Positions 4,692 to 41,732 of a DNA stretch of 64,000 nucleotides are shown here, in pieces. The notes beneath the pieces were generated by a model. It saw only the letters and a list, made by a program, of their open reading frames with translations. It did not search any database and was not told where the DNA came from. The DNA comes from Malacoraja senta (Eukaryota): positions 23,004,001 to 23,068,000 of the forward strand of contig CM075987.1 in assembly GCA_038087875.1 (NCBI GenBank), given 5' to 3'. The position numbers and the translations under genes were made by a program. Each line of letters begins with the position of its first letter. Positions within the stretch are counted from its first letter, which is position 1.

Positions 4692-7600
4692 TCACACAGG
4701 GTCCGGGGTGCCCGCTCTGTGGCCGTTCACCTGCGGCTGCAAGGCAGCGCTATTGATCGCAGCTCCGCCGTTGGCTTCTCCCGGTGCCGCTGCCGCGGCA
4801 GAGGGCACGGTTTCCGTTGCCATCTCCTCTTCCGGCATGAGCGGCCCCTCCTCCTCCTCCCGTCTCCGGTACGCCTCGCAGAGTGGGAGGTCAGCACCGT
4901 CCCACAGGCTGTAGCTTGCCACGAACAAAGATGGCGTAAGAAAGAAGAGCAACGGATGTAAGAACGAGTCAAGAGTATGAGCAACAAAAAAAATAAAAAT
5001 AAAGGGAGTTAGTGACAAAGATAGGGAAGAACTTGCATTTCTGTTGTGCCTTTCAACAGCTCAGGACCTCCAACAGAATATCTTTAACACAGAAGCAGGA
5101 GGAGGCCATTTGGCCCTTCGAAGCTGATCTCCCTTTCAATAAATGAACATCCAAACTCAGTACCCTGTTCCTGCACTCTCCTCCTATCCCTTGACCCACC
5201 CATAACAACCACATCCATCTCCTTATTGACTATATTTAATGATTTGGCCTCCACTGAGAATCCAGGTCGCCCATTCTCTGATTGAAAATATTTCACCTCA
5301 TCTCAGCCCTACATGACCGCTCTGGTTCTGGACATCTCTGCCATTGAGAACATCTTTATTGCATGTGTCTATTCCAGTCAGAAACTTTTGTTTCAATTGG
5401 TCCTGGAGGCAGTGCAGCGAAGGTTTACAAGATTAATTCCTGCAATGAGGGGATTGACATATGAGGAAAGGTTAAGTAGGCTGGAACTCTACTCTTTGGA
5501 GTTTAGAAGAATGAGAGGCGATCTCATTGAAACATATAAGATCGTGAGGGGCCTTGATCGGGTGGATGCACCGAGGATGTTCCCAATGATCGGGGAAACT
5601 AGAACTAGGGGACATAATTGCAGAATAAGGGGGGGCTCTTTTAAAACTGAGATGAGGAAGAACTTCTTCACCCAGAGGGTGGTTAATTTATGGAATTCAC
5701 TGCCCCAGGGAGCAGTGGAAGCAGAAACATTAAATATATTTAAGTCTAAAATAGATGTTTTTTTAGCTGCCAAGGGGATAAGGGGCTACGGGGAGAGGGC
5801 AGGGATATGGACCTAGGTAGGGTTAGTATAGTAAGACCTGAGTGATCTCCTGGACAAGTGTCGATCGCCTGGATTGGGGTCGGAGAGGAATTTCCCGGAT
5901 TTTTTTCCCGAATTGGACCTGGGTTTTTATCCGTTTTTTTGCCTCCCCCAGGAGATCACGCGGTTCTTGGGGTGGAGAGGGGTGATAGCGGTATAAAGGG
6001 GAGGGTAGCGTCTTGTGTTCTGTGTCTTGTGTCTACTGTTTGTGGGTAGGGGTGTCTGTTTGGTGTTCAGCCATGAGCGAATGGCGGTGCGGGCTCGATG
6101 GACCTGGTGGTCTACTCTCGCACCTACTTTCTATGTTTCTATGTTTCTATGGTCCCCTCATTCTTCTCAACTCCAGCAAAGGTAAGCCCAATTGTCCCAA
6201 TCGCCTTTGATGTGCCAATCCTGAGCCTTATGCACCAGTCAATCCTAGGGCAATAGTCTGTTGAACCTTTGCTGCAGTCCCTCCATGGAAAGACAATCCT
6301 TTCTCAGACAGGGAGACCAAAACTGTACACAGCACTCAAGGTGTGATCTTTTACACCCAAGAGGCCTTCGACCCTCTCCCTGTGATACAAGTCATCAGAC
6401 AACAGTTGAACATTTCCGGCGACCTGCTGCGGCTATGACGGGTGCTGGCAGTCGCCGAAAAAAATCACGTAAGTGGGACAGGCCCTTAAGGCTCTGCATA
6501 AATGTTTGCTTTCTCAACCACCCTGCTGTATTTACATACTTACTTTCATCAACTGGTGTACACAAGAATGCTAATACCCACAGGTTCAGTCAGCAGTAGT
6601 AATTAGAAGTCAGCCAATTTAAGCACACAAACAGCAGTGCAATAATGGCCCACACGGTATTCTTTTTTTTGGACTTGTTGGTTAAGCAATAAATATTGGC
6701 CAGGTATCAATGTACCACTGCTATTGCTTAAATCAGTGCCATGAGAATCTTTTACACCCAAGAGGCCTTCAACCCTCTCCCTGTGATACAAGTCATCAGA
6801 CAACAGTAATAGTAGCAATAAAAGTTGACGTTTTCAAGACTCTGTGGGCTTCTTTGCAACTTTACCACCACAACTTCTGCCTAGAAGCTAATTACTTTTT
6901 TTAGAACGACAACTCTAAGAACTCAAACAACTCATCCAAAATAAACTACCACTGACAGTGCAGTGCCACCCTCAGTACTATACTGCTATTTTTTGCACAT
7001 ATCTTAGAAGCAAGAAGCTACTCACAGGGTTACAGCTAGACCTGGGGAACTGAAGGGTTCTTGTACATTCTCAGTGTCTTTCAAATTCAAGTGTTTTTCC
7101 CCCGTTCTCCCACTCTGTCTAAGTGACTGTTGCATCAAAGGCTCCAAACTAATGCAAGTTCTTGTGGAACGCGAGTTCTTTGTTAGAACGCAAGCTGTAA
7201 AACAGTACACTTCAGAGACCATATCAAATACCCCAGCTGGATTAGCACAGGTTAGATACATTTTAAAGCTCCGTCAACACTGTCCCACTGAAGCAGCAAC
7301 CCTCTCCCTATGATACAAGTCATCAGCAAACAGTAATAACACGGATAAAAGCTATCGTTTTCAACTTGTGGGCTTCTTTGTGAATTTACCACCACAACTT
7401 CTGCTTAAAAGCTTATTACTTTTTTTTTTTTTTTTAAGACAACTCTTAGAACAGTAACTCAATAGAAAGCAAATGGCAAGTGGGATGTTGGTAGAACTTA
7501 AATTAGATGAGGTGTAATTAAATGGAAACACAGAAATTGGAAATCAATAATCTGCATGTTTTAACTTTATTTAGGTAGTATATAAAATGTTGAATCTTTA

Positions 7601-10600
7601 ATGCAGGATGCTGGAATGTGTAACAGAATTAAGCATCCAGTCTAAATTATATATAAATTTTAAAATAAACAAGTACAGAAATAAAAACAACTTTCTTAAA
7701 ATGCTGGGAACAATGAACAAGGCACAAGATTTAAATGACAATTATTAAATGCAACATTCACCTGGACACCACTACTCGAAGGACCCATTAATTAAGGTAA
7801 GTTAAGGTTTCAGTCCGTGCTTTAAGATATTGTAGACCTCAGTGACAAAAAGCTTGAAAATTTAAAGAATGTGTTTCACTGAAATAGCATCAGCAATGCT
7901 TAGTTTAGTTTAGATACAGCTCGGAAATAGGCCCTTCGGCCCACCGAGTCCACACCGACCAGTGATCCCCACACACTAACACTATCCTACACACACACTA
8001 GGGACAATTTACTATTATATCAAGCCAATTAACCTACAAATGTGTTTGTGTTTGGAGTGTGGGAGGGAACCAGAGATCCCAAATTTACCGCTGACAGCGT
8101 AGTCGCGTATCTGTTTAATTTGCGCGTTTTTGAATTACGCACTGCTTTTCAAACACGCAACCTCCGTGTAAAGCGCGAGGTGTCTGCAATGGGAAAAGTA
8201 CCTGGAATGGCATGGAATACTGAGGGGCGTACAGCTCAGAACGCTGCAATATCACGGTGGCGCACTGTGCAGCAGGAGTTGTACGCACAGCATTACATTG
8301 GATGGACATTGAACATTCTTGGCCATGTGGCTCGTTTAAGGCTAATATTCTGTTAAGACGCCACTCGGATATGCCACAGGTATATGCGCGGCACAACACC
8401 GGAACAGAACGAGATGAGGAAGCAACTTGCAGCAGTTATAACAGTGGATAATCAGGCAATTGGTAGAACTGACATGAGTTACACAAGGAGTTCACAGCCA
8501 GTGATATGATGGGATGTAAAGCAGGTTCAATGCTTATAACACATGAATATCAGCACTGCTGGTAATATCGCCCATTTCAATGAGGAATGGATGAGGTTCT
8601 GAATTATACAGCTGTTCAATTTCAACAATTTTAACTTAGGAACGTTTTTTTTTCATTTCACAGCATACAAACAATATAAAAATATTTTATGATATAATAT
8701 AAAATGTTGCTGCAGTGATTATTATGTATTAAATGCTTTATGCCATTGATTATAGTTAAATTGAATTCCCTTTAATATACTGCTCATCTAAAAATGGAGT
8801 GTGGTATGTAACCGGCCTGTTTCTTCATGGCCACATTGTCATTGTACATCAAACTAACAAACATAGGACTACATCCCATCCACTAAAATGATGACACAGG
8901 AATATGTCACACATATCATTATAACGTCTGATAATAGGTTTAGTGCATAGGTAACGTGTAAGATTATATTATAGCAAGATATGTAAAATTCCAGTTTGTG
9001 CTTTAAAAAAAATCACATCATTGCATAAAATAGGGCAGGAAAATTCTGTCCAGAATCCAAAATGATTGCACTGGTTTGTTGGATAGTAGAGGGGCATTGC
9101 TTCTGCCTCAAGTGAAATGTGGGTTTTAAATTTCAATGCCCTTTGCACAAGGAGACAGGAATGGCAAACTAACAGGTGCTAGAGCAGTCAGGACGATCTT
9201 CAAAGTTGTATTAGTGACACCCCTTCTGCACGAGAATGCTTGAAGATTGACTAATTGGCAAACATCCTCAGCTGGGTTTGCTCCTCCAAGCAGGCTATTG
9301 GTACCCCACGGTTTCCATGTGAAGGATCAGTACATTTTGTTTAACAAGTCATGGTGTAAGAGGGGGTAGGGTTGCACAAGAGACCTTTCATGTGAGCAAC
9401 GTAAAAATGATTTCCCACTGTGGATCAGGAATTAATATCAGACAAGAGTTGGAATGAGGAAGAAATGTGTTAAAAAAATACAGCAGCTGCCCTGACCCTC
9501 ATATACAAGAGTCTACACAGAGCTAATAGGCACTGACTGGTATGGGTTGTAAAAGTACCCAGTGTTTTCCGATTGAGACTGTAGTCAGCTGATGATTGTG
9601 TATTGCAAAGGTGCTTCAAACAGCCCCAACCCGAACACAAAGTATAATATGCGGGAAAGAAAGAATATGCGGGAAAGAAAGATTTCCATTTCCAGGGCAT
9701 GACATAAAGAGATCGATAATAAACTGCATTATGGAAAGGGAGAGGGTTGAAGGCCTCTAGGGAGGAACTGTAGATGCTGGTTTAAACCCAAGACAGACAC
9801 AAAAATCTGGTGTAGCTCAGCGGATCAGGCAGCATCTCTGGAGAAAAGGAACGGGTGACGTTTCGGGTCGAGACCCACTGAGTTACTTTTTGTGTCTGCC
9901 TTTTGCATTATAGAAACAGTTGAAATAGACACCGCTTCTCATGTCAAGGAAATACACTGGTGCAATGGAATCAGGACTAGAATATTACAATGCAAAAACC
10001 TCAGCATGTTAAATTTGGCAATAGAAGAATATTATGTTGTGGGATTAAGAAAGTGTTACATCCTGAGGAGGTGAGACTGCGGAGTATGTCAGCGCCCCCG
10101 TTGCGGCTGCTCAGACACGTTCAAGGCTGAGTAAGGGTAGTCCTGTGCTATTTGTACCTGGAGGAGTAATATTCTTCTTCCAGCTCGTACAGGTCGATCG
10201 CAATCTCATCTCTCAGGGTGATCAGCTTCTTGTCACATTCTTCCTGCAGATTCCGGAGCTGCTGCTTCCGCTGGTTAATGGCTTCATTCACCGAAGGAAA
10301 GTCGTTCAGAATCAGGAACTGTTTAAGGTCCGACACCAACTTCATCAGAGACTCCCCGGCACGCACCTAAAGCAAGGCAGCAAAGAAAAGACCAGTGATA
10401 GACCAGTGTCAGAAGTTATGGGGAGAAGGCAGGAGAATAGGGTTAGGAGGGAGAGATAGATCAACCATGATTGAATGGCGGAGTAGACGCGATGGGCCGA
10501 ATGGTCTAATTCTACTCCTATCACTTATGATCTTCCGGGCCAATTTCTCTATGCATTACTCCCATAGTCTCTATGCATTACACCCATAGTGTCAAGACAA

Positions 10601-13302: not shown

Positions 13303-15886
13303 TCCTCACTTGTTTCCCTGCACGGACAAAATTCACAATACGCAAGCAGCATGTTATTAAAACATTTTCAACACCTTCTCTGCTACAGTTGTTGTTCAGT
13401 TCAACAGGAGTGGCTTTCCCCTAATGGATACAAAGTGCTGGAGTAACAGGTCAGGCAGCATCTCTGGAGAAAATGGATAAGTGACATGGCGAGGACTCCT
13501 TCCCGTAGAAAAAAAGGCCCGGTGGTGGAGGAAGAACTCTACATCATGGCAGGCCTGGAACTCGCAGAGGTGGGGGAAAGAGGGGCACATAGGCAAGGCC
13601 TCTGTTGAGGACAAACCGTTCTGTATCAGAAAGAGGGAGGTTAGGGGAAAAGGGTGAGGGCTGGGGATCTGAGGGGTGGAGGGAGACTTGGTCAAGGTAG
13701 TGCAGGGGGGAAGAATGATGGAGGCTGAGAGGGGAGGTGGTTTCTCTGGCATTCCCCTAACGTTTAATTTGGTATCACAGTTCCTGTATAGCCCTGATCC
13801 AGATCTGATGACAATAGTGCATTGTTCACAGCAATACTCTAAAGTTGGTGGATTTGATGAGACTTCTTCAAAAGGGCAAAAGTTGAGTTCTAGTCCTGAT
13901 GATTGAACATAGACTGCTGAGGGTTCTTTCACAGCATTAAACTACGGTGGCTTTGCCCAGTCAGGTGGATATAGACAATCTGACTGTACTATTTGACGAT
14001 AGTTACCTCAACCAGCTTCACTATGAACACGTTGGTTTTATCACAGCGAGGTTTGTGGGAACTTGCTAAAAACAAATGGCTGTCATGTTACTAGATTGGA
14101 CTTGCCTCAAATGTACTTAATAGCTTATAAAGTGCATTGGGACAGTATAATATCTTGAAAGGTGTTGTACAAGTGCATGTTTCTATTGGAAAGAGGAAAA
14201 ATAGTTAGGAAACACACAGAAAATGAGGAGGGGTACCAATTGAGGGTTGCGTTATTTTCTAGTGTGTTTAACAGTCTCAGAATACTCTAAAGTGCTTTAA
14301 CATCCAACAAAATACATTTTAAAGTGCTTCAAACAAACCCCCACGGAAAAAATGTTACAAGAGTCAGTTTTAAGTACTGATTGAGGTTCAAGGCAGCAGG
14401 GATAATAACTTTTTGCACAATGACGCCATGGAATTTTTTTAATGGGACGTTGAATATCTGAAATAAAGAGATAAATTACTGGAAAACATCAACAGACTGG
14501 GTAACATTTGTGGAAAGAGAAACAGGCTTAACATTTAAGATCCTAGACCCGTTGTAGGGGAGCATCAGCAGAAGATTGTGTTTGTGCTTCTACAGGACCC
14601 TGGAGACCTTAAATATCAAAACAGATCCTTTGCTCCACCAAGCCCACACCAACAAGCACCCACCCATCATCCCATTAATCTATTTTATTATCCCCACATT
14701 CCCATTAACTCCCCCAAGATTTTACCACTCACCTACACACTACGGGCAATTTACAGTGGCCAACAAACCTAACAATCCACATGCCCGTGGGATGAGGGGG
14801 GAAACAGGAACATTCGGAGAAAACCCACATTGTCAAGGGGAGAGCGTGCAAACACCACTTAGTCTGAGGGTCTTGACCTGAAACGTTACCTGCTCAATCC
14901 CTCCACAGATGCTGCCTGACCTGCTGAGTTCATCCAGCACTTTGTGCTTTGCTCAACATTCCATCATCTGCAGTTCCTTGTGTCCCAGTTTAGTCTTCAC
15001 CATTCCAAATCAGAGTCAAGAGTTGTACATCACTAAGCTGCCATTGAGGCAGCCAAAGACTGCAATTCAGTCTCTGGATGTAGTGCCCATCTTAGACTGG
15101 ACACCCAACCATTGATTCCATTACACTGCCTTGGGAAAACAGCCAACATAATGGAGGACCTTTCCCATCCCAGCCATTCCTTCTCCCAGCTCCAGTCAGA
15201 CAGAAGCTTGAAAGCACAGGCCACCAGACCCAGGAACGGTCTCGACCCAAAACGTCACCATTCCTTCTATCCAGAGATGCTGCTTGTCCTGCTGAGTTAA
15301 TCCAGCATTTTGTGTCTATCTCCAGGAACAGCTTCTTCCTCTTTGTTATTACACTTTTGAACGGTCCTTCCATAAACTAGGGTTATTCCATTCACCAACC
15401 TACCTCATTTCGGACATTGGACTTTTGTCTCTGGAACTGCTGCACTACAATGCTGAGAACGACATTCTGCACTCTGCAGCTTTCTCTTCGCTCTCCCAAT
15501 CGTGCTTGAGTTTGGTTTGATTGTATTTATGTGCAATGTTATCTGATTTGATTGCGCGGCATGCAAAACAAAGCTTTTAACCTTGCCTCCGCACACGTGC
15601 ACACAGAACTTGTATCTCTTGTTCTGTATTACGCTTAGCGGCTTACATGTTCTGTTGTGCTGCAGCAAGCAAGAATTTAATTGTCCTATCTAGGACACAT
15701 GACAATAAAACTCTCTTGACTCTTGTCTTAAATCCATCCCCCATTTCGTCCCTCCCATCCCGCACAGGTTCAGAAGCGGATCTCTGACCTCCAACACCGG
15801 TTAGGATCACCCGCCTTTGCCCCACGTTTACCCCCCTGCTCGGTGGGGAACACCTTGCGGCCTTCACCACCCCTCACCCTCAGAAC

Positions 15887-15918
15887 CAAAGATACTAGAG
15901 GATCCTCTAGTATCTTTG
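15887..15918. mobile_element. 32-bp palindromic mini-element (hAT-like) with 8-bp TSD CTCAGAAC
   Basis: CAAAGATACTAGAGG-AT-CCTCTAGTATCTTTG, flanked by ctcagaac at 15879-15886 and 15919-15926. Confidence 0.75.
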
Positions 15919-15933
15919 CTCAGAACAACTCAC

Positions 15934-16150
15934 CTCAGGCCGCGGCCACGGTGCTCCCCCAACCCCGGTCCCTGCTGCCCTACAGCCCGCCTCCTGACGA
16001 GGCCGATTGGAGTTGGGGCCCGAACGGATCGCTTTCACTGTGGCGAGCCGAGCTGTCCGTTAAAAGTGAGCGCCATTTTGATAATAAGTGTGCGCCATGT
16101 TGGTGAGGTCTTGCCTCTTGATAAGGTCGCGCCATGTTGGTGAGGTCTTT
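15934..16150 (-). promoter_or_regulatory. MED22: Putative MED22 promoter and non-coding first exon (small CpG island; donor GAG|gtgagt at 15934/15933) with three YY1-like CGCCATNTT motifs
   Basis: CpG-rich patch upstream of the acceptor at 13318. Motifs cgccattttg (16071), cgccatgttg (about 16093) and cgccatgttg (about 16130). Confidence 0.6.
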
Positions 16151-17567
16151 CCATCTCCATAGAGATGTGGCGGGAGGAACTGCAGATGCTGGTTTACACC
16201 GAAGACAGACACAAAATGCTGGAGTAACTCAGCAGGACAGGTAGCATCAAATGAAGAAGGGTCTCGACCCGAAACATCACCTACATCATTTCTCCAGAGA
16301 TGCTGTGTGACCCGCTGAGTTACTCCGACGTTTTGTGTCCATCTAGCATCAAATGACAGACAGGCAGCAAATAGACAAATGCAAAATACAAAATCAAAAA
16401 TTGTTGCGGAAAGGAAAGAAAAATGTAATAGTCTTCATATCGCTTGAATATTATGCAAAAGCAAAGCAATTTTAAAGTGTAATTATTGTATTGGTAGGCT
16501 CTAATTCTAGCTATGGTTTGGAGGATAGCAAACAGCAGGAGGAATTAATGCATCCACAAGTTCATGTTATGACTTAAAATTCAAGTAGTGAAATATAAAT
16601 ATGTATCAGAATAGAACAGTGAATAGAACCATGATAATGAATTCTATAATGACATCTTAATATTTGTTGGAGACCATCTAGCTGACAGCTTACCATAAGA
16701 AACAAATGAATGACAAAATGAGGTTGTATTTTATGCTATTTTATTATAATTCTACAAAGTAATGACAGGTTTTGTAATAACAAACTCTATCCATAGACTT
16801 AAGCAGACAAGAATGACAAAAATCAGTCGAGACTTACAATCCTTATTTACAATTTGCCTGATAATTATAGTGATACAAACTGGCAATCTTTTTTTCATTT
16901 CAGAGAAACTTAGAAAATTCAGTTTAGAACTGAACTGCTCTATCTTAATTTCTTCCTTTTTCAGAATAATGTCAGACAATATTGAACAAGCTAATCTGCT
17001 ACACAATATCTTCCTGTGAATGAGCTTTAAAAGCTGTCTTTATTTCTGAAGGAACAATTCAATACACTTAGAAAAATATATATCTTTGGCTTGCATGTTT
17101 TACTTCATAATTCTTCTCAGACATCGATGAGGTCTGCTGGCTCCAAGCCTTTGTTCAAACCATTTACATACGTGAACACATGGACACGTCTTTAATAGAC
17201 CTGGCAAAGGTGGTAAGTTGTCCAGTGCTGCTGTCTGTGAGATGTAGCTGCTCCACAATGATGAAGTATTGGCAGGATATTTCCAGTCAGGATACTGTAT
17301 GACTTGTGGAAGCGAACTACAATTTGGTATTTTCATGCACATGCTACCCTTATCCTTTCTGGAATAGACAGGCTTTTGAACCTCTTGCTAATGCAGATCA
17401 TATGGACTACAGGCTTAATGTGTCATCCGCAGTCGTTTAAGCTTATTGGTGGACAATGTCATACTTTGTGGAATTTCCCTCAGATCAGCTGAACTCAAAT
17501 AAAGAGGTAATTCCAGGGACCCCAGTGATTTTCTCCTTCACCAAAACTTTCTATGTTGGCAACAGTA

Positions 17568-19907
17568 TCAGGATTTAGGTTGATCTCCAGAGCACAGGTG
17601 GTCCTTAGAAATGTCTCCCTCAGCTGAATCTCCAGGTTTATCACTGTTAACATCTGTCATAATTTCCAGAGAGCCATCGCCAATCACTCGATGAACCTTT
17701 TCTCCTCTTGCAGCCAATATTTCTTCGATATTCCTGATTAGCAAAAGAGTAAAATTTAAATGGTGCCTTAACAATCAAAGAAACTTCAAGTGGGGTTAGA
17801 AGGTGAAGGACAATTGAGCCACATTTGAGTTCAGATATTTAAAAGCTATACTCTAATTTTATATTTAACAGTTAACTGAAAACTTGGGTTGCAGAACAGA
17901 GTGAAGCAGGATTTTCTCTGCAGTTCAGCTTGAGGAGTTCAGCTTCAGTTCAGCATTGTAGCGTACCAGTTCCAGAGAAAAAGTCCAATGTCTGCAATGA
18001 GGTAGTTGAGAGAAATAGGGAAGGTTATGGCCTTATCAAAGTCTACTTATAGTTGACAATAAGTAGAAATACAGACAAGGTTACTTGAAAACAGTTAAAC
18101 TGAACATACCCAGATGATTTTGTGCAAATCTGGTCATTGTATTTCAATCACTCCTGGCTATTTTTGTTTTACAGTTCATCACTATCCCATTTAGGAAAAA
18201 GAAGTAACAGAAGAAAACTTTGCAATTGATGGAGAGTGAAGATGCCAATATTGAGTCCCACTAATTTGCTGAAATTGTATGTAAAATTACACCATTTTAA
18301 CCAAACAACAGGGAACTTACTTTTTTCCTTCTAGGTCTGAAAACCATCCCAAATTGTCTGCTATAATATGATGATTGCTGCACCCAGGACACTTTACGAT
18401 AACCACTCCATTGTGATAAGCAAGCTTGGAAATCCTCTTTGCAGATCTTGCATTGCACACCTGAAACAAGATAAAATACCCCTGCATTGTTAACAGGAAA
18501 TGCCCAAGTCACCGCTTACATTGTCTTGATGCCTGGTTCTATTTTCCATTTCTATACTTGACAGCAAACCTGTCTTCCCACACACAACCACCCCTTCCCC
18601 TCATCATGTGCTCTTTTTCAAATAAACACTGGATATTGAACAGTGGACATTCGACCTCTAATTGCTCTGTATAAACTCAGAGGTTAAAGAAGAATTTCCC
18701 CATATCCCCACAAATGTCCCCATATTTTAATGTAGCTCACAACACATAGAGTCGTTGTGGGTATTGCAGTGGTGCAGATAGTAGATCTGCTGCCTCACAG
18801 CACAACAGCCAAGATTCAATCTGACCTACAGTGCCTGTATGTATGGAGTTGCATGTTCTCCTGGTGACCACATGGGTTTCGTCTGACTGATCCCGTTTCC
18901 TCCCACATCCCCAAAACACAGAGGTTGGTAGAATAATTGACCACTGAAAATTGCCCCTTGTGTGTACAGATGAGTGGTAGAACAGAGGAAGGGATTCACA
19001 GAAAAGATTTTGTTAGGATTAGTGTATGTTCAATGGTATAAACGATGTGCCAAATAGCTTGTTTCCATGTTGTAACTTTCTATGATGAGTCTTCCCTGGC
19101 TCTCAAAGTATTCCAATCAAACCCAGTAGAGTTGCTGCCTTACAGTGCCAGAGACCCAGGTTCACTCACAACCTCAAGTGGTGTCTGTGTGGAGTTTGCA
19201 TGTTCTCTCTGCGACGACGTGAGTTTCTTCTGGATGTTCCGTTTCCTCCCATTTCCCAAGATTTGTGGATTTCTAGCTTGATCGACCTCTGTAAAATTTG
19301 CCTTAGTGTGTAAGCAGTGGATGCGAGAGTGGGATAACATAACACTCATGACTGGTGGTCAGCGTGGACCTTTTCACTGTATCTAAGTGCAGGTGGCAAT
19401 AATTAACCAATATCTGCACATCTTTCCAATTTGGAAGAGCACCATGCGATCACCTGGATAATCCTGTGCAAACTCCACACAGACAGCAACTAAGATCAGG
19501 ATGAAACCCTCCTTGCTGAGGCACCGGGTTAATATCTGCTTTCCCCCGCCTTCCAGGTTATTCTCTGGAGACAATAATTCATCCACACTAGTTGCAACCC
19601 CCTGGCTACAGCGAGAGAGTGAACAGCGGGGCCTCTTCACTGCCCTGCCCCCCCCCCCCCCCCCGGGTTAGTAGCTCACCTTGCAGGTGTAGACCAACTG
19701 ATAGTGTGTGGCCGAGGCCTGGGTTGCGCCCACGGAGGCCCGCTGTCCCCGGCCATTCCAGAGACCTCTGCACTGCACCGCGAACCGCCCACCTTCGTGA
19801 CCAGCACCGGCATGGAAAACCGGGCGCGGCCATCCGGAGGCCGCCGCCAGCAGCAGCCGAGCGGTCGCTGTCCTCCCGAAACGAGCAAACGTGAGGCCCA
19901 GGCTCAT
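17568..19907 (-). CDS. DNLZ: DNL-type zinc finger protein (mitochondrial Hsp70 escort, Hep1/Zim17/Tim15): exons 19907-19680, 18460-18321, 17733-17568; 177 aa
   Basis: Arg/Ala-rich presequence-like N-terminus, then [72 protein letters not shown]. Contains CxxC...CxxC and the DNL motif. GT-AG junctions are in phase. Confidence 0.95.
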
Positions 19908-20010
19908 CTCTTCCACGTAGGCCGCAGCTCGGTTGCTATGGAAACTCGAGCATGAGTCCGGCTCTGCGTCGCTTCCGGAAATCATCAGTCGAGTCACGTG
20001 GCACTGACCA
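19690..20010 (-). promoter_or_regulatory. DNLZ CpG island/promoter with ETS-like (CTTCCGGAA, about 19972) and E-box (GTCACGTGGC, about 19993) motifs
   Basis: High CpG density around exon 1; motifs are visible in the sequence. Confidence 0.55.
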
Positions 20011-21074
20011 AGGTACAATACCTCTGTTCAAATGCAAACATCGAGTAGAAAACTCATGTCAACATTAACTCAGTGGGTCAGGCAGCATCTCTGAAGAAGG
20101 GTCTCGATGTCACACATTCCTTCTCTCCAGAGATGCTGCAATGGTTTCCCTTTGGTTAGAAAAGAACCTGTCGCTCTGCAAGCCACAGACCAGCACTAAA
20201 TGTCGGAATTTGTCTTGTCCAACACATTAGATAGACACAAATAGCTGGAGTACCTGAGAGGGACAGGCAGCATCTCTGGCGAGAAGGAATGGGTCTCGTT
20301 TCGGGTCGAGACCTTTCTTAAAACATTGTCTTGCTCGGTTCCTCCCAAAGATGCTATAGGATCTTTGGTTCCTCCTGCTCCTGGGATTGAGAGGCTTATT
20401 CTCAAATAACAAAAGGATGCATCTCCCCAGGAGGCCACATGACTGGTAATGGTTAAGAAGGAACTGCAGATGCTGGAAAAATCGAAGGTAGATAAAAATG
20501 CTGGAGAAACTCAACGGGTGAGGCAGCATCTATGGAGTGAAGGAAAAGGTGATGTTTCAGGACGAGACCCTTCTTCAGACTCATGGTGCACTATGCACAA
20601 AAGCATTGTGCCAACACTGCCATGTGTAGGGGCAGTAACTACGATAGTGGTTTACACGGAAGATCGACACAATGCTGGATGAACTCATTGGGACAGACAG
20701 CATCTCTGGAGAAATGAATGGGTGACGTTTTGGGTCGAAACCCTTCATCAGACAGAGTCACGGGAGAGGGAGACTACAAATATAGATGAGTATGCTGTGA
20801 AAAGGACAGATCAAGGAAATGTAGAAAATTAATCAGGAGGTCAGTGAAACTAGTCAGAGAACTAGGGTGGGGGAGGGGCAGAGAGAAGGAAAGCAATGGT
20901 TACTTAAAATTAGAGAAATCAATAACCATACCGCTGGGTTGCAAGCTGCCCAAGCGAAATATGATGTGCAAAAGCACAATTAACAATGCACAATTCTGTC
21001 CTGCTGAGTTACTCCAGCATTTTGTGTCTATCTTCTGGTTTAAACCAGCAACTGCAGTTCCTTCCTACTACATT

Positions 21075-22085
21075 TGCTGGCAGACATGGAACAAAGAGTA
21101 GGGATTAACGGATCCCTTTCAGAATGGCAGGCAGTGACTGGTGGGATGTCACAAGGCTCTGTGCTGGGACCGCAGCTATTTACAATATACATTAATGATT
21201 TACATGAAGGAATTAAAAGTAACATTAGCAAATTTGCAGATGGCACAAAGCTGGGTGGCAATGTGAACTGTGAAATGGAGGCTACGAGGATGCAGGGTGA
21301 CTTGGACAGGTTGGGTAAGTGGGCAGATGCAGTATAATGTGGATACATGTGAGGTTATCCACTTTGGTGGCAAGAACAGGAAGGCAGATTATTATCTGAA
21401 TGGTGTGTCCTTGTACCTCAGTCACTGAAAGTAACCATGCAGGCAAAGCAGGCCTTCATAATGAGGAGTTGAGTATAGGAGCAAAGAAGTCCTTCTGCAG
21501 TTGTACAGGGCCCTGGTGAGACCACACCTGGAGTATTGTGTGCAGTTATGGTCTCCTAATTTGAGGAAGGACATTCTTGCTATTGAGGGAGTGCAGCGTA
21601 GGTTCACAAGATTAATTCCCGGGCTGGCGGGACTGTCATATGATGAAAGAATGGAGAGACTGGGCTTATATTCATTGGAATTTATAAGGATGAGAGGGGA
21701 TCTTAGAAACATATAAAATAATTAAGGGATTGGACACGCTAGATGCAGGAAACATGTTCCCGATGTTGTGGGAAGTCCAGGAACGGGGGCCACAGTTTAA
21801 GAATAAGCGATAGGCCATTTAGAACTGAGATGAGGAAAAACATTTTCACACAGAGAGTTGTGAATTTGTGGCATTCTCTGCCTCAGAAGGCTGTGGAGGC
21901 CGATTCACTGGATGCATTCAAAAGAGAGTTAGATAGGGCTCTTAAAGATAGCGGAGTCAGGGGATATGGGAGAAGGTAGGAACGGGGGACTGATTGGGGA
22001 TGATCAGCCATGATCACATTGAATGGCAGTGTTGGCTCAAAGGGCCGAATGGCCTACTCCTGCACGTATTGTCTCTATCTATGTA
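21075..22085 (+). mobile_element. CR1-type LINE 3' portion, degenerate, between the DNLZ and RPL7A promoters
   Basis: QGSVLGPQLFTIYINDL...KFADGTKL and YRALVRPHLEYCVQ.WSP peptides, broken by frameshifts. Confidence 0.9.
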
Positions 22086-22425
22086 CATTTCCTTGATCTT
22101 CATCTGCTTTGATCTGTCCTTTTCACACTAGTCTCCCCCTCTGCTGACACTCAGTCTGAAGAAGGGTCTCATCCCGAAATGTCACCTATTCCCTTTTCCC
22201 CATTTCCAGAGATGCTGAGTTACTCCAGCAGTGTGTGTCTATCTTCTGTGTAAACTTGCAGCATCTTTCCTGACGTCCTCTGAGCGAGGGCTATTCGTAT
22301 ATATGTATGTAGTTTGCTTGTGTATACTATTCTTATAACGAATGTAAAGCACTTTGGTCAACGAGAGTTGTTTTTTAAATGTGCTATATAAATAAATGTG
22401 AAATGTGAGCATCTGCAGTTCCACC

Positions 22426-22459
22426 CAAAGATACTAGAGGAGCTCCTCTAGTGTCTTTG
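22426..22459. mobile_element. 34-bp palindromic mini-element (same family as 15887-15918) with 8-bp TSD GTTCCACC
   Basis: CAAAGATACTAGAGG-AGCT-CCTCTAGTGTCTTTG, flanked by gttccacc at 22418-22425 and 22460-22467. Confidence 0.75.
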
Positions 22460-22589
22460 GTTCCACCCTGCAGTTCCAGTGAGGTTCCAGTGAGGGCGCG
22501 GTCCCTTTAAATTGAAGCCACGTGTGAACTGGCGCGGGTATTACCGGGCATGCGCGACTTCTACGCCCTCTTTCTATGTCCCCGCCGCC

Positions 22590-29222
<6,633 letters not shown>

Positions 29223-29805: not shown

Positions 29806-32800
29806 CTACGCAGGGATTTTCCGTATGAACTTCTGGAACCACATATAGGACGTAGCTGCACAAAGTCCATACCTGTCCAAGAAAAACAATCCATTGTATA
29901 TGGTTACTATGACCTAATGGATCACTAACAATTACCAGCATTTTGATGGCATAGACAGAATGTTTGCTGGAAAGAGCAAATTTAAACACCAAAGGTACAC
30001 AAAAATGCTGGAGAAACTCAGCGGGTGCAGCAGCATCTATGGAGCGAAGGAAATAGGTAACGTTTCGGGCCGAAACCCTTCTTCAGACTGATAGGGGGTG
30101 GGGAGAAGAAAGGAAAAAAGGAAAAGGAGGAGGAGGAGCCCGAGGGTTGGGGGAGGGGAGGAGACAACCAGAGGGCTGATGAAGGGGAGGGGACAGCCAG
30201 GGCTAGCAGAATTGGGAGAATTCAACGTTCAGGCCACCAGGGTGTAGACTGCCCAAGCGGAATATGAGGTGCATTTCCTCCAATTTACGGTGTTGCTCGC
30301 TGTGGCCATGGAGGAGACCCAGGACAGAGAGGTCAGATACGGAATGGGAGGGGGAGTTGAAGTGCTGAGCCACCGGGAGTTCAGGTTGGTTATTGCGGAC
30401 CGACCGGAGGTGTTCGGCGAAACGATCGCCAAGCCTCCGCTTGGTCTCACCGATGTAGATCAGCTGGCATCTAGAGCAGCGAATGCAATAGATGGGGTTG
30501 GAGGAGATGCAGGTGAACCTCTGTCGCACCTGGAACGACTGCTTGGGTCCTGGAATGGAGTGGAGGGGGGAAGTGAAGGGACAAGTGTTGCATCTCTTGC
30601 GGTTGCAAGGGAAAGTACCAGGGGAGGGGGTGGTATGGGAGGGAAGGGAAGAATTGACAAGGGAGTTACGGAGGGAGCGGTCTTTGCGGAAGGCAGACAT
30701 AAGGGGAGATGGGAAGATGTGGCGAGTGGTGGGGTCACGTTGGAGGTGGCGAAACTGACGGAGGATCACTTGTTGTATGTGACGGCTGGTGGGGTGAAAG
30801 GTGAGGACTAGGGGGACTCTGCCTTTGTTGTGAGTGGGGGGATGGGGAGAGAGAGCAGTGTTGCGGGGTATGGCAGAGACCCTGGTGCGAGCCTCATCTA
30901 TGGTGGAGGAGGGGAACCCCCGTTCCCTGAAGAATGAGGACATTTCAGATGCCCTGGTGTGGAACGCCTCATCCTGGGAGCAGATGCGGCGTAGACGGAG
31001 GAATTGGGAGTGGGGGATGGAGTCCTTACAGGAAGCAGGGTGGGAAGAAGTGTAGTCCAGATAGCCATGGGAGTCGGTAGGTTTGTAGTGGATGTCGGTA
31101 AGGAGTCTATCACCTGCGATGGAGATAGTGAGGTCAAGGAATGGTAGGGAAGTGTCGGAAATGGTCCAGGTGTATTTAAGTGCCGGATGGAAGTTGGTGG
31201 TGAAGCGGATGAAGTCAGTCAGTTGTGTGTGGGTGCAGGATGTGGCACCAAAACAATCATCGATGTAGCGGAGGTAGAGGTCGGGGATGGGGCCCTGGTA
31301 CGCATTGAACAGGGATTGTTCTACGTACCCGACAAAGAGGCAGGCGTAGCTGGGGCCCATGCGTGTGCCCATAGCTACGCCTTGTATTTGGAGGAAATGG
31401 GAGGAGTCGAATGAAAAGTTATTAAGTGTAAGTACCAGCTCCGCTAGGCGGAGGAGGGTGTCAGTGGCCGGGTATAGATTGCTTCTCCGGTCGAGGAAAA
31501 AACGGAGGGCTTTGAGACCATCCTGGTGGGGGATGGAGGTGTACAGTGACTGGACGTCCATGGTGAAGATGAGGGGGTGAGGGCCTAGAGAGTGGAATGC
31601 GCGGAGATGACGGAGAGTGTCTGAGGTGTCTTGAACATAGGTGGGGAGGGATTTAACCAAGGGGGATAGTATGGAGTCGAGGTAGGTGGAGATGAGTTCG
31701 GTGGGGCAAGAACAGGCAGAGACAATGGGTCTACCGGGACAGTCAGGTTTGTGGATTTTGGGGAGAAGGTAAAAGCGGGCTGTGCGGGGCTGGGGAACGA
31801 TGAGGTTGGAGGCTCGTTCGGGCAGGGCGTGGGAGTGGATGAAGTTGGTGATGGTGCTGGAGATGGTGGCCTGGTGCTCGTCAGTGGGGTCATGGTCCAG
31901 GGGTAAGTAGGAAGAGGTGTCCGAGAGTTGGCGCGTGGCCTCAGCTTTGTAGAGGTCGACGCGCCAGACTACCACGGCACCTCCCTTGTCGGCGGGTTTG
32001 ATAACCCAATCTAGGTTGTTGCGGAGTGAGTCGATGGCAGTGCGTTCAAGGGGGAGAGATTGGAGTGAGACAGGGGAGTGGAGAAGTTGAGGCGGTGGAT
32101 GTCACGGCGGCAGTTTTTAATAAAGAGTTCTAAAGCCGGAAGGCTGCGAGGGGGGTTCCATGAGGATGGGGTGCGTTGGAGACGGGAAAAGGGGTCATCA
32201 GTGGGGAGCGAGGACTGCTTCCCATGGAAGTGAGCTGTGAGGCGGAGGCCTCATTTAAACACCAGTTAGCCAATAGAGAACCCAGTAGTTTACTTTTTCT
32301 CCTGTGACTTCACAAGAATAATGTGCATTTAAAAGTTGAGCAGGAGAACAAGTAAAAGAAACACAATTGAGGTGGTGTGTATTGAACATGAATCTGCCGT
32401 ACAGGACTGGAATCATGTTCAACTTAGCTGCTCAAACTGTAGCACTAATTAAGATGTGAGTATGCCCTGCACTATTACCCATTGTTAGTATCATTGGTAT
32501 TGAGTTATTTTGTCACATCTATCGAGACACAGTAGAAAAAACAGTTTTGCATGTTATCCAGGGAAAACCATACAATAAACAAATACATAGGCAGTGCAAA
32601 AGAATAAATAAAGAGAACGTTCAGATTTAAAGTGCACTGTCCTTAAGGTCATTTGGAAGATCTGGAATTCATCCCTTGCACATGAGGGCTGTGCAAGATA
32701 ATAGTGGATGGTGGGAAATGGGCTGTCAAAAAATGACAACTGGTCTACCCAGCCTGTGCTTATGGCCGCAGCATCACACCTGCTTAGTTCTGTAACCACT

Positions 32801-35800: not shown

Positions 35801-38800
35801 GGACACATCATCCGAGGACGCACACACCATTGAGGATAAATGGGGATACTGTGGATAGGGTGAGCTATGACATGGACATCACACGCTGCAGCACTCGTGA
35901 CTAAGGCAAGGCAGCGCCTTTACCACCTCAGGCAATTGAGGAAATTCAGAGTGTCTCTGAGGATCCTCCAGTGCTTCTACTCAGCGGCTGTGGAAAGCAT
36001 CCTGTCTGGAAATATTACAATCTGGTTTGGGAACTGCTCTGCCCAGGACAAGAAGGCTCTGCAGAGAGTAGTGCGTTCGGCTGAACGCACTACGGGAACT
36101 TCACTCACCCCCCTGCAGGAACTATACATCAGAAGGTGCAGATCCAGAGCCAACAAGATCATGGGGGAACCCCTTCCACCCCTGCAACGGACTGTTCCAG
36201 CTGCTACGGTCAGGCAAACGCCTCCGTTGCCATGCTGTGAGAACAGAGAGGTTGAGAAGGAGTTTCTTCCCAGAGGCCATTAGGACTGTAACCTCCTATC
36301 TCACCAGGGACTAACTTTACTGGACCACTCTACTGGTTTTTTTTTTAATTGCTGTTTTTTTTCCCTTTTTCCTTCCGCCCACAATATTTAATATGTAAAA
36401 GAATATGTGATTATGTTCCATTCTGTTTGTTTGTTTGTTTGTTTGCACAAAGTCTGCGAGCATCGCCACTTTTCATTTCACTGCACATCTCGTATGTGTA
36501 TGTGACGAATAAACTTGACTTGATTTGACACTTGCCCCTTACCTTCACCCCCACACTCACCTGTCCTTTTCTTCTTGTTTCTGGATTGATCTTCCTTCTG
36601 GGTACAAAGCCCCTGTTCACAAGGATTCGCACTCTGAAAGAAACAATCACATAGATCACCTGGAGAGCATGGTGCAAATGCACTGGCTGAGATTTAATGT
36701 TGGCCCTGTTGTCCCAGGCCAGAGGATGACTGCAGGGAAAAGGCAATCTGCTTTAACGATCACAATCTGGGCTTCCTATAAGCCATGCTAACCTACTGTG
36801 GAGGGTTTGGTGGCAGAGGGGGCTTTAATGAGATCTAGCCCCTACATGGGGTTCACTGGGCAGGTTATCAGCTAGTGTTTGATGACTGCTCATGATAAGT
36901 ACTGGATTCTAATAGGGAAATTCCCAGAAATAGCCCTTAGAATATTTATCGTTTGACTGTTTTTCCCACTGTCAGAACATTGATGTCAAATATAAACAGT
37001 CTCAAATGGAAGTGCTGGCGAGACTGTCTGAAAAAAGGTCTCGATCCGAAACGTCACCCATTCCTTCTCTCCAGAGATGCTGTCTGTCCCGTTGAGTTAC
37101 TCCAGCTTTTTGTGTCTCTTCGGTTTAAACCAGCATCTGCAGTTCCTTCCTACCTTGGGTTATTTACTGCAACCTCTTGGATTCTATTTAAGGGGCTGAA
37201 GGTCTCCTCATGTTCATGTGCAACAGGCTCAAGGGCCTCGACAGCCTCGTCCTGCTGTTCCCAACATAATAAACTTTTCCACTCCCCTTACCTACTCTAA
37301 CCTCACCCCCTCTGAACGTATAGCCCTCCACGCACTCTGCAGCAACCCCAACATTACAATCAAACCCGTCGACAAAGGAGGTGCCGTGGTAACCTGGTGC
37401 TCTGACAACTCTGAGCCATCTCCTCCTACTTATCCTTGGACCATGATCCCACAGACGAGCACCAGGCCTTAATCTCAAACACCACTTCTGGCAGTCTGCC
37501 TTCTCCAGCCTCCAACCTTATCGTTTCCCAGCCCCGCACAGCCCGGTTCTACCTTCTCCCCAAAGTCCATAAACACAACAGCCCTTGTAGACCTATTGTT
37601 TCTGCCTGATCCTGTCCCACAGAAATGATGTCCACGTACCTCGACTCCATCCTATGCCCCCTGGTCCAATCTCTCCCGACCTATGTCCAAGAAACCTCAC
37701 ATGCCCTTTGCTCTTCAATGACTCCCTCGTCTTTACTATGGAAGTTCAGTCACTCTACACCTCCATTCCCCACCAGGAAGGCCTTAACGTCCTCCATTTC
37801 TTCCTCGGTCGCAGAACCATCCAATTTCCCTCTGCTATCACTCTCCTCCGCCTAGCGGAGCTGGTCCTCACCCTCAACAACTTCTTCTTTAACTCCTCCC
37901 ACTTCCTCCAAGTCCAAGGCGTAGCTATGGGCACCCGCATGGACCCCAGCTACGCCTGCCTCTTTGTAGGATACGTTGAACAATCCTTGTTCCAGGCGTA
38001 CACTGAACTCCGTTACTTTGATGATTGCATCCGTGCTACCTCCTGCACCCATGCAGAACATATGGACTTTATCAACTTCACTACCAATTTTCATCCTGCA
38101 CTCAAAATTTACTTGGACCTTCTCCGACACCTCCCTCCCCTTTCTTGATCTCACAGTCTCCATCACAGGAAATAGACTATTGACTGACGAGGGGCTGAAC
38201 AGCCTCATCCTGCTGTTCCCACCTTAAACTCGAGGGGCTGAATGGCCTTGCCCTGCTGTTCCAGTTTAGTAGACTGGAGGGGCTGAATGGCCTCATCCTG
38301 CTGTTCCCAGCTAAAACGAGGGGTTGAGTGGCCTTGTCCTGCTGTTCCAGTTTAGTAGACTGGAAGGGGTGGGCGATTTTTACTTGCCCTTCAGGCTCTG
38401 GGACCGCTGACGTACCCCAGGTCCGTGCAGTGGAAGGGCGTGACCACGTTGGCACCGGAGTCTCCGCTGGAGGTCAGGCGGCCCGCCTCTCGTGCCTCCT
38501 TGTCGGGGTCCACCTGCGACCGGGGCATGATGTAGAGCTCGCTGGAGTGGTCGAACCTCCCGCGAACCATCACCCGCCTGTACTCCAGCTTCTTCACGTC
38601 CAGTTGACTGTGGGGCACAGAGGTGGAAACGGTAGTGCATAAAACAAGCCGTAAAACCAAACCTGTGTGACGAGGTCAGTATTACCCCGGGAGAGAGGAG
38701 GGGGCAGGGGGGGGGGTCGGTGTGGCCCTGGGGGAGAGTCAGTGTCACAACAGGGGGAGGGGTTCGATGCCAGTCTTACTTACTCCAGGGGAAGGGGCAC

Positions 38801-40887
38801 GGGCTCCATGCAGCTTCTCTCTGCTAGTGCCTCGATTAGCTGCAGTTTCCATTTCCGACGTTGAACCTTAAGGGAAGGGAGAGCGAGAATGACAGAGACA
38901 GGCACGTAGATCAACATGGCAAGACTCAGCCCCACACCCAATTGGACACTTGGACTCGCACAAGGAACTGATCTGTAACACAACTGGATCCAGATTACAG
39001 GGGTAACAGGCAACCGATAGGTCCTTCTCTGTAGTTCCCTTCCCCAGTGCAAGTGTCAGCCGGAGTTAGTCAGACCATTACACCCTGGACATCCAAGCTC
39101 CAGAATGACCATAACCCTACAATGGTCATTGGCTCCATGGTCTCTGACACTGCACACAGGCTGCCAGACCCATCCTAAACCCAGACACCTCACAGCGACG
39201 GCCATCCCCACTCTGATCCCGCCAGCACGTAACAAAAGTGTTTCACTGTACCTCGGTACACATGACAATAAACCGAAAGCTAAACTAAACTAAAAAAAAC
39301 TAACCCCACTGACCAGTGCAGTCACCAGCAAAGCCCACGCTGTCCCCTGACCCCACACAGTGACTACAGAGCATTGTTTAATTAGCAACACACTGACACA
39401 GGGGAACAGCAAGCAAATATGCCAAACAAATAAAACACACTCTCATCATGCGCATGGACCCCCCCTCAGTGCGGTGAGTGAACATGAACCGAACGGCGGA
39501 GATACCTGCCAGGTTCCGAGACCAAAGGTGGCGACCGGGATCAGAAGCAGGGTCCACTTCAGGAAGGAATCATTGGTGCCCTCAGCAACCGTCGCCGTGG
39601 AGCTGCATGCCACATTGTGCCCGACAACAACCCCTGAACAATAAACACAGTCTGAGTAACAGCAGAGCCTGGGGTTGTTTATCACTGCCCTCCACTCCAT
39701 CCGCCCTGTAACCGAGCGCACGTTCTGGAGGGCTATAGAGGAAGAGGAACAGATTGTGCACAGAACTTCCTTACCTTTGGTTTTTCCTCTGGCAGAGCAC
39801 AAGATCAAGTGGCCATCTCTGTAGACCTTTGCTGAGCAGTTATTCAATATCTGTGGAATAGAGAGGAGACTGAGGAAAGGTTTGAAGGGACCTGGCATTA
39901 GTGCTAGTGTATGTGTGCGTGTGTGTGTATATATACATTTGCTCTACTGTCCATCCTTTGCTCTCACACTGATTCCAGCTCAGAAGGTCCATCCTCTTGG
40001 TCCATCCTCCTAAATCTATGGTACACAATGACAGATCTGTGCACTCCAGCACTGTAGCCTAGTGGTTTACAGTGATGGTCCTCGATCCATCAGTGCTGTA
40101 CCCGTGTTTAGAGGCAGATTCACCTGTATTCACCAAGGCTCTATCCATGACATGCAGTGACAGACCAATGACCCAGGTGCAATCCTACTCTCCAGTGCTA
40201 CATGTCTGGAGTTTGCATGTTTGTGCTGCCATCATGTCGGATCTCCCCTGTACCCGTATACTTCATACATGAATAAAGTGAAAGAGGCTGGGATGATTTG
40301 AAGGATGAAAATATATATATATATATATATTTTTAAGGCTTAATAAACTGATAACCAGGACAGGCATGTACCCAGAAATAACCAGCAATTATCCTATTGT
40401 GCTTGCGTTTGGCTTGCTTGTATTCGTGTGTAGTATCGTCTGATTTAATTGGAGATCATGCAAACAAACGCTTTTCACTGTTCATGACAATAATGAACCT
40501 AAACCCGGCAATTCATTTAACGAGGAGGGGGGGGGGGGGGGGGCGCAATATAAAGTAATGGAATGGGATTCATTCTGTGCAACCAGCGCTGCGAATGACC
40601 AGCCCTTTACTGGGAATAGGAGGCTTCATCAAGCGGGGAGGGGGGAGGGGGGCAGCGACGGTGCACCAGGCCGCATGTGTGTGTCTGTGTCTGTGTCTGT
40701 GTCTGTATCTGTGTCTGTATCTGTGTCTGTGTCTGTGTCTGTGTCTGTATCTGTGTCTGTATCTGTGTCTGTATCTGTGTCTGTACCTGTGTCTGTGTGT
40801 GTGCCGGCCCCGAGCTGAGCTGAGCCGAGCTGAGCCTAGACTCACCCAGAGCCCGAGGAGCCGCGACCCGCGGACCGCCCGCAGCAT
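29806..40887 (-). CDS. SURF1: Surfeit locus protein 1 (cytochrome c oxidase assembly factor): exons 40887-40846, 39850-39775, 39633-39506, 38866-38784, 38607-38416, 36633-36561, 34631-34469, 33991-33910, 29872-29806; 301 aa
   Basis: [33 protein letters not shown]...|[22 protein letters not shown]...[27 protein letters not shown]...[44 protein letters not shown]. All GT-AG, phases consistent (906 nt). Exons 1-2 (presequence) are less certain. Confidence 0.93.
29992..32252 (-). mobile_element. Penelope-like retroelement (RT + GIY-YIG endonuclease), 5'-truncated, young, in SURF1 intron 8, with 12-bp TSD ATTTAAACACCA
   Basis: 590-aa ORF 31975-30203, preceded in frame by IKPADKGG, containing [33 protein letters not shown] and [18 protein letters not shown]. 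One frameshift in a C-run near 32050. TSD at 29980-29991 and 32253-32264. Confidence 0.95.
30050..30091 (-). ncRNA. Minimal type-I hammerhead ribozyme motif in the Penelope 3' repeat
   Basis: Minus strand reads cagt-CTGAAGA-A-GGGT(TTCG)GCCC-GAAA-CGTT-acc: catalytic core, stem II, and a palindromic stem III. Confidence 0.6.
32855..33570 (+). mobile_element. Degenerate CR1 LINE fragments in SURF1 intron 8
   Basis: Decayed RT sequence (..SKAFD.V.., [13 protein letters not shown]) plus the CR1 3' end shared with other copies. Confidence 0.75.
35232..36529 (+). mobile_element. Rex1/Babar-like LINE 3' fragment (frameshifted RT) in SURF1 intron 6
   Basis: [14 protein letters not shown]...[16 protein letters not shown]...[10 protein letters not shown]...[12 protein letters not shown]...[12 protein letters not shown]. 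Tail AATAAA(CTTGA)n. Confidence 0.88.
37250..38185 (+). mobile_element. Older degenerate Penelope-like RT fragment in SURF1 intron 5
   Basis: [27 protein letters not shown] and [14 protein letters not shown] peptides, homologous to the 30203-31975 ORF but with stops and frameshifts. Confidence 0.88.
38188..38375. repeat. About 4 imperfect tandem copies of GAGGGGCTGAATGGCCT(T/C)..CCTGCTGTTCC (about 45-50 bp period)
   Basis: Visible direct repeats just downstream of the SURF1 exon 5 donor. Confidence 0.75.
40678..40802. repeat. Hexanucleotide microsatellite (GTGTCT/GTATCT)n in SURF1 intron 1
   Basis: Directly visible. Confidence 0.97.
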
Positions 40888-40942
40888 TCTGCACACAAAC
40901 CGGAAGCACGGCCACGCTTCCGCCGGCGTCAGCTGACCACAG

Positions 40943-41581: not shown

Positions 41582-41732
41582 TGTCCGGGCTGATGGACAG
41601 GACGTTGACCCCGTGCCGGGTTTCTTGGTTTCTTGCTCCTCCAAAATATTCCAATGGAATTTAAACTGGAGGTGGTGGAGGGAGGACTTAAGCCAGAAAG
41701 GGTTTTTGGGAAGAAAGAGCTACCTTAAATTT

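Follow-up and report, generated by a model that had tools for sequence, protein, structure and literature searches.

Short palindromes in a vertebrate Surfeit region as probable excision footprints of a P-type transposon

The P transposase of Drosophila cuts with a 17-nt stagger, generates 8-bp target duplications, binds at positions further inside than the terminal repeat and prefers promoters as targets (PMC7776569, PMC10983969). A staggered cut of 17 nt is described as setting P elements apart, and in the papers cited it is documented only for the enzyme of Drosophila (PMC7776569). Upon excision the 17-nt tails stay on the donor DNA, and the junctions formed afterwards keep both 8-bp duplications (PMC2895639, Tables 1-3). 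Among these fly junctions are products of 32 bp made at a TA microhomology, of 30 bp made at AT and of 34 bp joined bluntly, besides shorter joins at microhomologies and insertions copied from a template (PMC2895639). P, 1360 and Galileo have duplications of 8 and 7 bp (PMC3698922), and the target motif of Drosophila P is palindromic, of the GT..AC type (PMC2577343). Enzymes of hAT, MULE and Transib elements form hairpins on the flanking DNA, whereas Tc1/mariner enzymes cut both strands where the element ends (PMC5499845). Here, we describe three short palindromes, elements 1 to 3, in a stretch of 64,000 nt (the window, taken at its full length) from Malacoraja senta (assembly GCA_038087875.1, contig CM075987.1, forward-strand positions 23,004,001 to 23,068,000), which is a vertebrate Surfeit region. 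The three palindromes are probably immobile excision footprints of a P-type transposon, and not MITEs (miniature transposable elements with inverted repeats) of the hAT type. The claim is that the transposon worked like the Drosophila P element; its membership of the P superfamily is suggested, not established.

Palindromic insertions in the window

Element 1 (15887..15918) is a perfect palindrome of 32 bp consisting of two 16-nt terminal-repeat arms head to head, and is flanked by the 8-bp duplication CTCAGAAC (left copy, 15879..15886; right copy, 15919..15926). Element 3 (22426..22459) is a near-palindrome of 34 bp with two 17-nt arms and one arm mismatch, and is flanked by GTTCCACC (left copy, 22418..22425; right copy, 22460..22467). 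A preliminary description of this DNA had given both palindromes, with their lengths, perfect 8-bp duplications and positions, exactly as found here, but had seen no other copy in the 64 kb. A window-wide search for inverted ends lying within 7-9-bp direct repeats did find a third member. This element 2 (20346..20367) is a near-palindrome of 22 bp with a related arm type, one arm mismatch and the self-complementary word CTATAG at its centre, and it has a perfect 8-bp duplication as well (GTTCCTCC; left copy, 20338..20345; right copy, 20368..20375). No strand is assigned to the elements or their duplications. Elements 1 and 3 have a 16-nt arm in common save for one mismatch, the arm of element 2 is related to it, and all three elements are centred on self-complementary words. 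The duplications of 8 bp at all three sites and the CA..TG ends are those of the P superfamily, although neither property is exclusive to it. In each duplication GTT stands at one end and T at position 2. The elements are predicted to fold as hairpins, with z values of -3.5 to -6.1.

These three are the sole short CA..TG elements in the window even under relaxed criteria (length 10-79 bp, an 8-bp duplication with at most one mismatch and 7-bp inverted ends with at most one mismatch). Among 30 first-order Markov resamples of the window, made to assess chance, none contained an element of at most 60 bp that combined an 8-bp duplication with inverted ends of 10 bp.

Relatives were compared through assembled contigs from four of 24 listed sequencing runs, including two samples of organism A, either of which may be the source of the window. 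A contig of organism B matches 15687-15878 and then 15919-16119, with the two matches meeting at the consecutive contig positions 206/207. It thus skips exactly 40 nt, which are element 1 and one copy of its duplication, and this demonstrates that element 1 is an insertion. An empty site in a related species, which the preliminary description had proposed to look for, is therefore at hand. Against the window, organism B has 77 substitutions in a contig of 1647 nt, which makes it a relative at about 5% divergence, and as judged from these contigs the insertion is younger than the split that this intron divergence reflects. Element 1 is present in a contig of organism A sample S2, which covers 15888-16200 with zero differences.

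In sample S1 of organism A, a contig extends over 28 of element 3's 34 nt and has no substitution there. An organism E contig starts within the element, at 22434, where the empty allele would fit it at no more than 10 of 26 positions. Thus either element 3 itself or its parent's end is probably shared with organism E, and for that reason may be older than element 1. Adjoining element 3, an 11-bp tandem duplication was observed at 22474-22495, where the organism A contig has 11 gap positions and zero substitutions and the organism E contig has 12 gap positions; it may be polymorphic, or may be another scar at an insertion hotspot.

The same terminus in metagenome DNA

Metagenomes were scanned with a pattern of two 12-nt termini lying 0-30 nt apart, which is blind to sites shorter than 24 bp or longer than 54 bp and yields CA..TG ends by construction. 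At least 120 loci were obtained, and the counts below are among the matches listed. Eighty of the loci come from 16 assembly prefixes, some with identical loci, and so are not independent. Merging by flanks left 100 distinct sites, 98 of them with flanks long enough to score. In BLAST comparisons of the metagenome contigs with the window, the element itself was the only match, which places this DNA outside the window's group. The contigs carry reverse transcriptase and Tc3-type fragments and have a CpG observed/expected ratio near 1, and their DNA appears to be eukaryotic but not from fish, with an invertebrate-type host.

Perfect duplications of 7 bp were found at 63 of the 98 scored sites and of 8 bp at three, and none of 6, 9, 10 or 11 bp occurred. 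When one mismatch was allowed, 75 sites had a 7-bp, four an 8-bp and one a 9-bp duplication, and 18 had none. Paralogous empty sites gave an overlap of exactly 7 nt for five independent elements and of 6 nt for a sixth. At the same tolerance, duplication length tracks arm subtype: the seven sites with AGA- or AAAGA-type arms include four with 8-bp and none with 7-bp duplications, whereas the 91 with other arms include 75 with 7-bp and none with 8-bp duplications. The arms in the window are closest to the AGA type of the 8-bp group. By the Repbase rule, two elements belong to the same superfamily if their duplications are equal in length and their positions 1-11 are alike (PMC4455052); on this rule, elements 1 and 3 and the metagenome 8-bp sites are placed in the same superfamily. 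The symmetrised 7-bp target sites have T at position 2 with a frequency of 0.63. Two loci were observed to hold paired complete scars within about 200 bp (L015, 462-692; L062, 231-354) and a third a solo arm beside a scar (L120, 249-334), a clustering that suggests insertion hotspots or local hopping.

The metagenome sites are 25-49 bp long, with peaks at 26 bp (28 sites), 32 bp (9) and 40 bp (12). Their size is capped: only three of the 100 exceed 43 bp, against 35.5 expected if lengths were uniform up to the 54 bp allowed (P 3e-15). The sites comprise 60 distinct sequences, and one 40-mer accounts for five sites. After 26 sites without the exact 16-nt arm had been set aside as other families or variants, the junctions of the 74 main-family sites were scored against a data-derived 21-nt arm. 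Microhomology was found at 43 junctions (27 with a 3-nt, eight with a 2-nt and eight with a 1-nt overlap); six were blunt, 11 could be derived from a plain join by at most two substitutions, and the remaining 14 were scored as insertions. For six of these 14 a variant arm longer by one base is the better reading, and seven or eight carry 4-14 extra nt, which in some cases repeat arm sequence. Arms differing by one extra base were observed at L027, L029, L044, L078, L087 and L118, and this subfamily has the same junction classes shifted by one (41 vs 40 and 33 vs 32 bp). Joining of one arm at microhomologies is predicted to give the 26-, 32- and 40-mers that dominate. Of 21 arms reaching the full 21 nt, 14 run into their palindromic partner and seven into continuations of their own; since these seven all differ, no common parent sequence is kept beyond 21 nt.

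Excision footprints and alternative origins

If the palindromes are P-type excision footprints, a longer element would first have inserted and created the 8-bp duplication, an insertion being observed directly at element 1. Transposase would then have cleaved one strand where the element ends and its partner about 17-21 nt inside the terminal repeat, leaving each flank with a single-stranded copy of the repeat tip, as shown for Drosophila P. Host end joining would have fused the two identical tails, either bluntly or at self-complementary words, as the anatomy of the junctions suggests. The product would be duplication, arm, reverse-complement arm and duplication, with 16+16=32 bp at element 1, 17+17=34 bp at element 3 and a trimmed 22 bp at element 2, joined at CTATAG. 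Such scars would be immobile, as they have no internal transposase-binding sites and cuts made 17 nt in from both ends would leave nothing. A tail of 17 to 19 nt fits the window elements, three sites being too few to fix its length. By analogy with the fly product of 17+17-2, the 40-mer of the 7-bp family may be read as 21+21 with a 2-nt overlap of the tips.

The resemblance to Drosophila P junctions is close. Both duplications are kept, the insert consists of two repeat tips head to head (PMC2895639, PMC7776569), and the 32- and 34-bp products, the shorter microhomology products, the blunt joins and the short insertions all have counterparts there (PMC2895639). Promoter-proximal sites are a further likeness (PMC7776569). 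Elements 1 and 3 are inside CpG-island-like segments, as the preliminary description had said of both, and none of the three sites is farther than 300 bp from such a segment; segments of this class make up 21.7% of the window (0.217 cubed = 0.01). Open promoter chromatin may have been favoured, and a 30-40-bp scar may be tolerated where a full element is not. Promoter targeting, also proposed in the preliminary description, is thus plausible on three sites only. Unlike the fly junctions, which were obtained in laboratory mutants with a known transposase and a 17-nt stagger, the scars described here are natural and apparently fixed; their terminus is different, their transposase is unseen, and their 7-bp relatives keep arms of up to 21 nt.

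Several points weigh against excision by a P-type enzyme. The window holds three sites, and the statistics come from another organism. No long parent and no P transposase were found in the window, the metagenome loci or 128 viral loci. A Pfam scan of 110 of the 172 long open reading frames of the metagenome loci gave no P or hAT domain, its only matches being reverse transcriptase, Tc3-type helix-turn-helix and low-complexity ones. The viral scans gave 128 loci with single matches and none with paired ends plus a duplication, two further scans gave no matches, and a scan of prokaryote genomes gave two terminus matches, neither with a duplication. The invertebrate-type arms reach 21 nt and not 17, and a value of exactly 17 nt was dropped for that family; the longer arms reflect either a different stagger or simply the length of the repeat. 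Indeed, without a parent a cap set by the cut is indistinguishable from a cap set by the repeat. No site was found to carry a second, different junction or a long allele, and a single identical 26-mer occupies 27 of the 100 sites, which amplification could also yield. The fly junctions come from Rad51 (spn-A) mutant flies (PMC2895639). Repbase holds hAT families with 7-bp duplications (PMC4455052), and the argument that 7 bp proves P was dropped on this account. The promoter test was post hoc and made on three sites, with element 2 just outside its island, and CpG near the metagenome scars was barely enriched (1.06 vs 0.97; 72 contigs), with GC content lower. Finally, 18 of the 98 metagenome sites are without a 7-9-bp duplication at up to one mismatch. 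These may be old, misassembled across a repeat, or the joined ends of two insertions. L033, L039, L041, L063 and L098 were observed among these duplication-less scars, some of which could be rearrangement breakpoints or assembly chimeras.

Among the alternatives, a transposase-independent collapse fares best, though we consider it unlikely. A longer element, of P, hAT or another 7/8-bp family, would lose the interior between its inverted repeats through replication slippage or aborted gap repair at internal palindromes, leaving an immobile remnant that is silent on cut geometry. The model for this route is the nearly precise excision of Tn10, a slippage-type loss of the interior between inverted repeats whose remnant is likewise a short palindrome of element ends between target duplications. 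The commonest joins are in fact at self-complementary words (overlaps of 3 and 2 nt make up 35 of 74), as are all three window centres, and the size cap could equal the repeat length. The Tn10 remnant, however, is bacterial, has a 9-bp target and is one product of 50 bp, whereas many junction types, blunt joins and insertions are seen here. The six blunt joins, the eight 1-nt overlaps and the seven or eight junctions with 4-14 extra nt are characteristic of end-joining repair (PMC2895639) rather than of slippage, and slippage should not require both arms to be shortened to at most 21 nt, except with a repeat of no greater length. P-type excision footprints thus remain the preferred reading. 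The preliminary description had left the choice between a family of elements of about 33 bp and the collapsed footprint of longer elements, and the second is judged the better of the two.

The first of these options, mobile repeat-only micro-MITEs of 22-40 bp for which a hAT or P transposase would act in trans, much as a mariner does for Made1, is more doubtful still. Made1 is uniform, about 80 bp long and inserted at TA, whereas the elements here are 22-49 bp long and heterogeneous. Similarly to Made1, they consist almost wholly of two inverted repeats, and Made1 is a very short inverted-repeat element able to amplify (PMC1784062). Clean duplications, empty sites, the recurrence of the 26-mer (27/100) and the 40-mer (5/100) and the failure to find a long parent would all suit such a family. 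The copies, on the other hand, are unlike one another: no two of the three in the window are equally long and their arms are of two types, distinct sequences number 60 among the 100 metagenome sites, and the dominant 26-, 32- and 40-mers are those predicted from microhomology. MITEs are recognised by homogeneity of length and sequence among copies (PMC3698922, PMC6004678), which is not what lengths of 22, 32 and 34 bp in the window and of 25-49 bp in the metagenome present. High copy number is a further mark of MITEs; the window, which is gene-dense, has three copies in its 64 kb. The sites internal to the terminal repeat to which P transposase binds (PMC7776569) are absent from these elements, and at 22-34 bp the elements would be too short for their two ends to pair without forming a hairpin. 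A transposon-derived origin thus stands, supported by the empty site of organism B, and a mobile family of about 33 bp is not supported, given the varied lengths and junctions.

Other 8-bp duplicators come into question on their target sites. The ends of hAT elements are of the CA/TA..TG/TA type and their target motifs GT..AC-like, so that the CA..TG ends, the 8-bp duplications and the T that comes second in each of the three would fit hAT too, and Zisupton of fishes also makes an 8-bp duplication. Zisupton is named in PMC4455052, and the 8-bp duplication of hAT is described in PMC5499845 and PMC6004678. The hairpin of hAT excision, however, forms on the flank and releases the element, and the donor site is therefore left without repeat arms (PMC5499845); moreover, the hATm ends are TAGGGTG, another terminus (PMC5499845, PMC6004678), and the terminus found here is elsewhere accompanied mostly by 7-bp duplications. 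The hAT origin suggested in the preliminary description is not supported on these grounds. That the palindromes are hAT excision scars, or regulatory palindromes (a cruciform or factor site) selected independently of any departed element, is thus very improbable, since hAT scars are inverted flank bases (PMC5499845) and these inserts are element arms, shared among sites and unrelated to the flanks, and since element 1, for all that the arms fold with z values of -3.5 to -6.1, is absent from a relative about 5% diverged and so is not a conserved promoter element.

Genomic setting and relation to P-type elements

Pfam matches in the window identify MED22 (PF06179), SURF1 (PF02104) and DNLZ (PF05180). 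The last exon of MED22 (10151-10366) gives the PF06179 match, and a putative non-coding first exon at 15934..16000 on the minus strand (upper limit approximate; splice donor 15933), in a CpG-island-like segment, presumably belongs to the same gene. Element 1 begins 16 nt into the minus-strand GT intron that starts at this donor, putatively MED22 intron 1, in close agreement with the 15 nt given before, and the right copy of its duplication occupies intron positions +8 to +15. DNLZ was observed between MED22 and RPL7A (16100-19900, minus strand). Its 5' part (18320..19833, minus strand) comprises a zf-DNL exon at 18320-18460 (PF05180, E 1e-22) and a probable start codon at 19833, which we assign to DNLZ; element 2 is 513 nt upstream of this codon and about 150 bp outside the nearest CpG-island-like segment. 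The first exon of RPL7A (22568..22592, plus strand) has a pyrimidine tract, an ATG at 22590 and a GT donor after it. We take the gene to be RPL7A from the translation of this exon and from the snoRNA content, SNORD24 and three SNORD36 copies being located downstream of it at 25720-28316. The tract is likely the start site. From the end of element 3 it is about 110 nt to the tract, which matches the earlier figure of about 110 bp upstream of the RPL7A start, and 131 nt to the ATG. The gene order of the human Surfeit locus differs from the MED22-DNLZ-RPL7A order of the window.

Other features were observed in the window. A first coding exon of a minus-strand gene lies at 4692-5060, within a CpG island. 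Just upstream of the SURF1 start, two adjoining tandem arrays at 40955-41550 are rich in CACGTG and possibly provide many promoter E-box sites. An uninterrupted, Penelope-like frame of 632 aa is found at 30206-32101 (minus strand), with a weak reverse transcriptase match (27.7 bits, under the cut-off) and a GIY-YIG match at E 0.0014. A broken element occupies 59223-60832; its ends are long and inverted, its interior holds inverted repeats as well (pair 59350-60719), and we take it to be Tc1-like from a motif, although a 123-aa piece of it gave no Pfam match. The interspersed repeats of the window presumably resemble those of skates and rays. Among inverted-repeat pairs considered by eye as candidate parents of the palindromes, 37131-43067 was rejected as a pair of repeat tails in opposed orientation with a palindromic 8-mer between them, the pair 59350-60719 as internal to the Tc1-like element, and the other long pairs as low-complexity or interspersed-repeat matches.

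Among P-like elements, zebrafish Pdre/THAP9 is the vertebrate counterpart and has CA..TG ends, short terminal repeats and 8-bp duplications as well (PMC10983969, PMC7776569). It differs from the scars in that the Pdre2 repeat is 13 bp long and of another sequence, and in that Pdre is known from internally deleted copies and plasmid excision assays (PMC10983969). The 7-bp duplication of most metagenome sites is that of 1360/Hoppel and Galileo, which are insect elements with other termini, unlike the window sites with their 8-bp duplications (PMC3698922). By title or the start of the abstract, no description of this terminus, of natural repeat-only P scars or of cartilaginous-fish P elements was found in the literature searched, most subscription journals being outside that search; searches with the terminus strings gave, among the matches listed, none about transposons by title. 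The parent family may well be catalogued already, for example in Repbase or Dfam. Flies already provide the mechanism; the new part is that it appears to have left a natural record in a cluster of vertebrate promoters and in another group of animals, together with a possible 21-nt stagger.

What do such scars mean for the P-type transposons? It is conceivable, as a tentative extension, that an undescribed P-type clade with the terminus CAAAGATACTAG was recently active in cartilaginous fish, with 8-bp targets, and in marine-type invertebrates, with 7-/8-bp targets, possibly through horizontal transfer. Genomes, and housekeeping promoters especially, would then be littered with fixed repeat-only scars, which would reveal cleavage geometry from sequence alone, the stagger being about 21 nt for the family with 7-bp targets compared with 17 in Drosophila. 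Scars this short likely escape repeat annotation, yet they lengthen the promoter regions in which essential genes begin by 30-42 bp. Provided that the palindromes are P-type footprints, many fossil cleavage products would be preserved in natural genomes, and the stagger, the target preference and the route of repair could be deduced from them for any family; the present data hint at a 21-nt stagger for the family with 7-bp targets. P-type transposons would then also have been recently active in a cartilaginous fish lineage, where the P literature cited here names mainly zebrafish Pdre and the domesticated THAP9.

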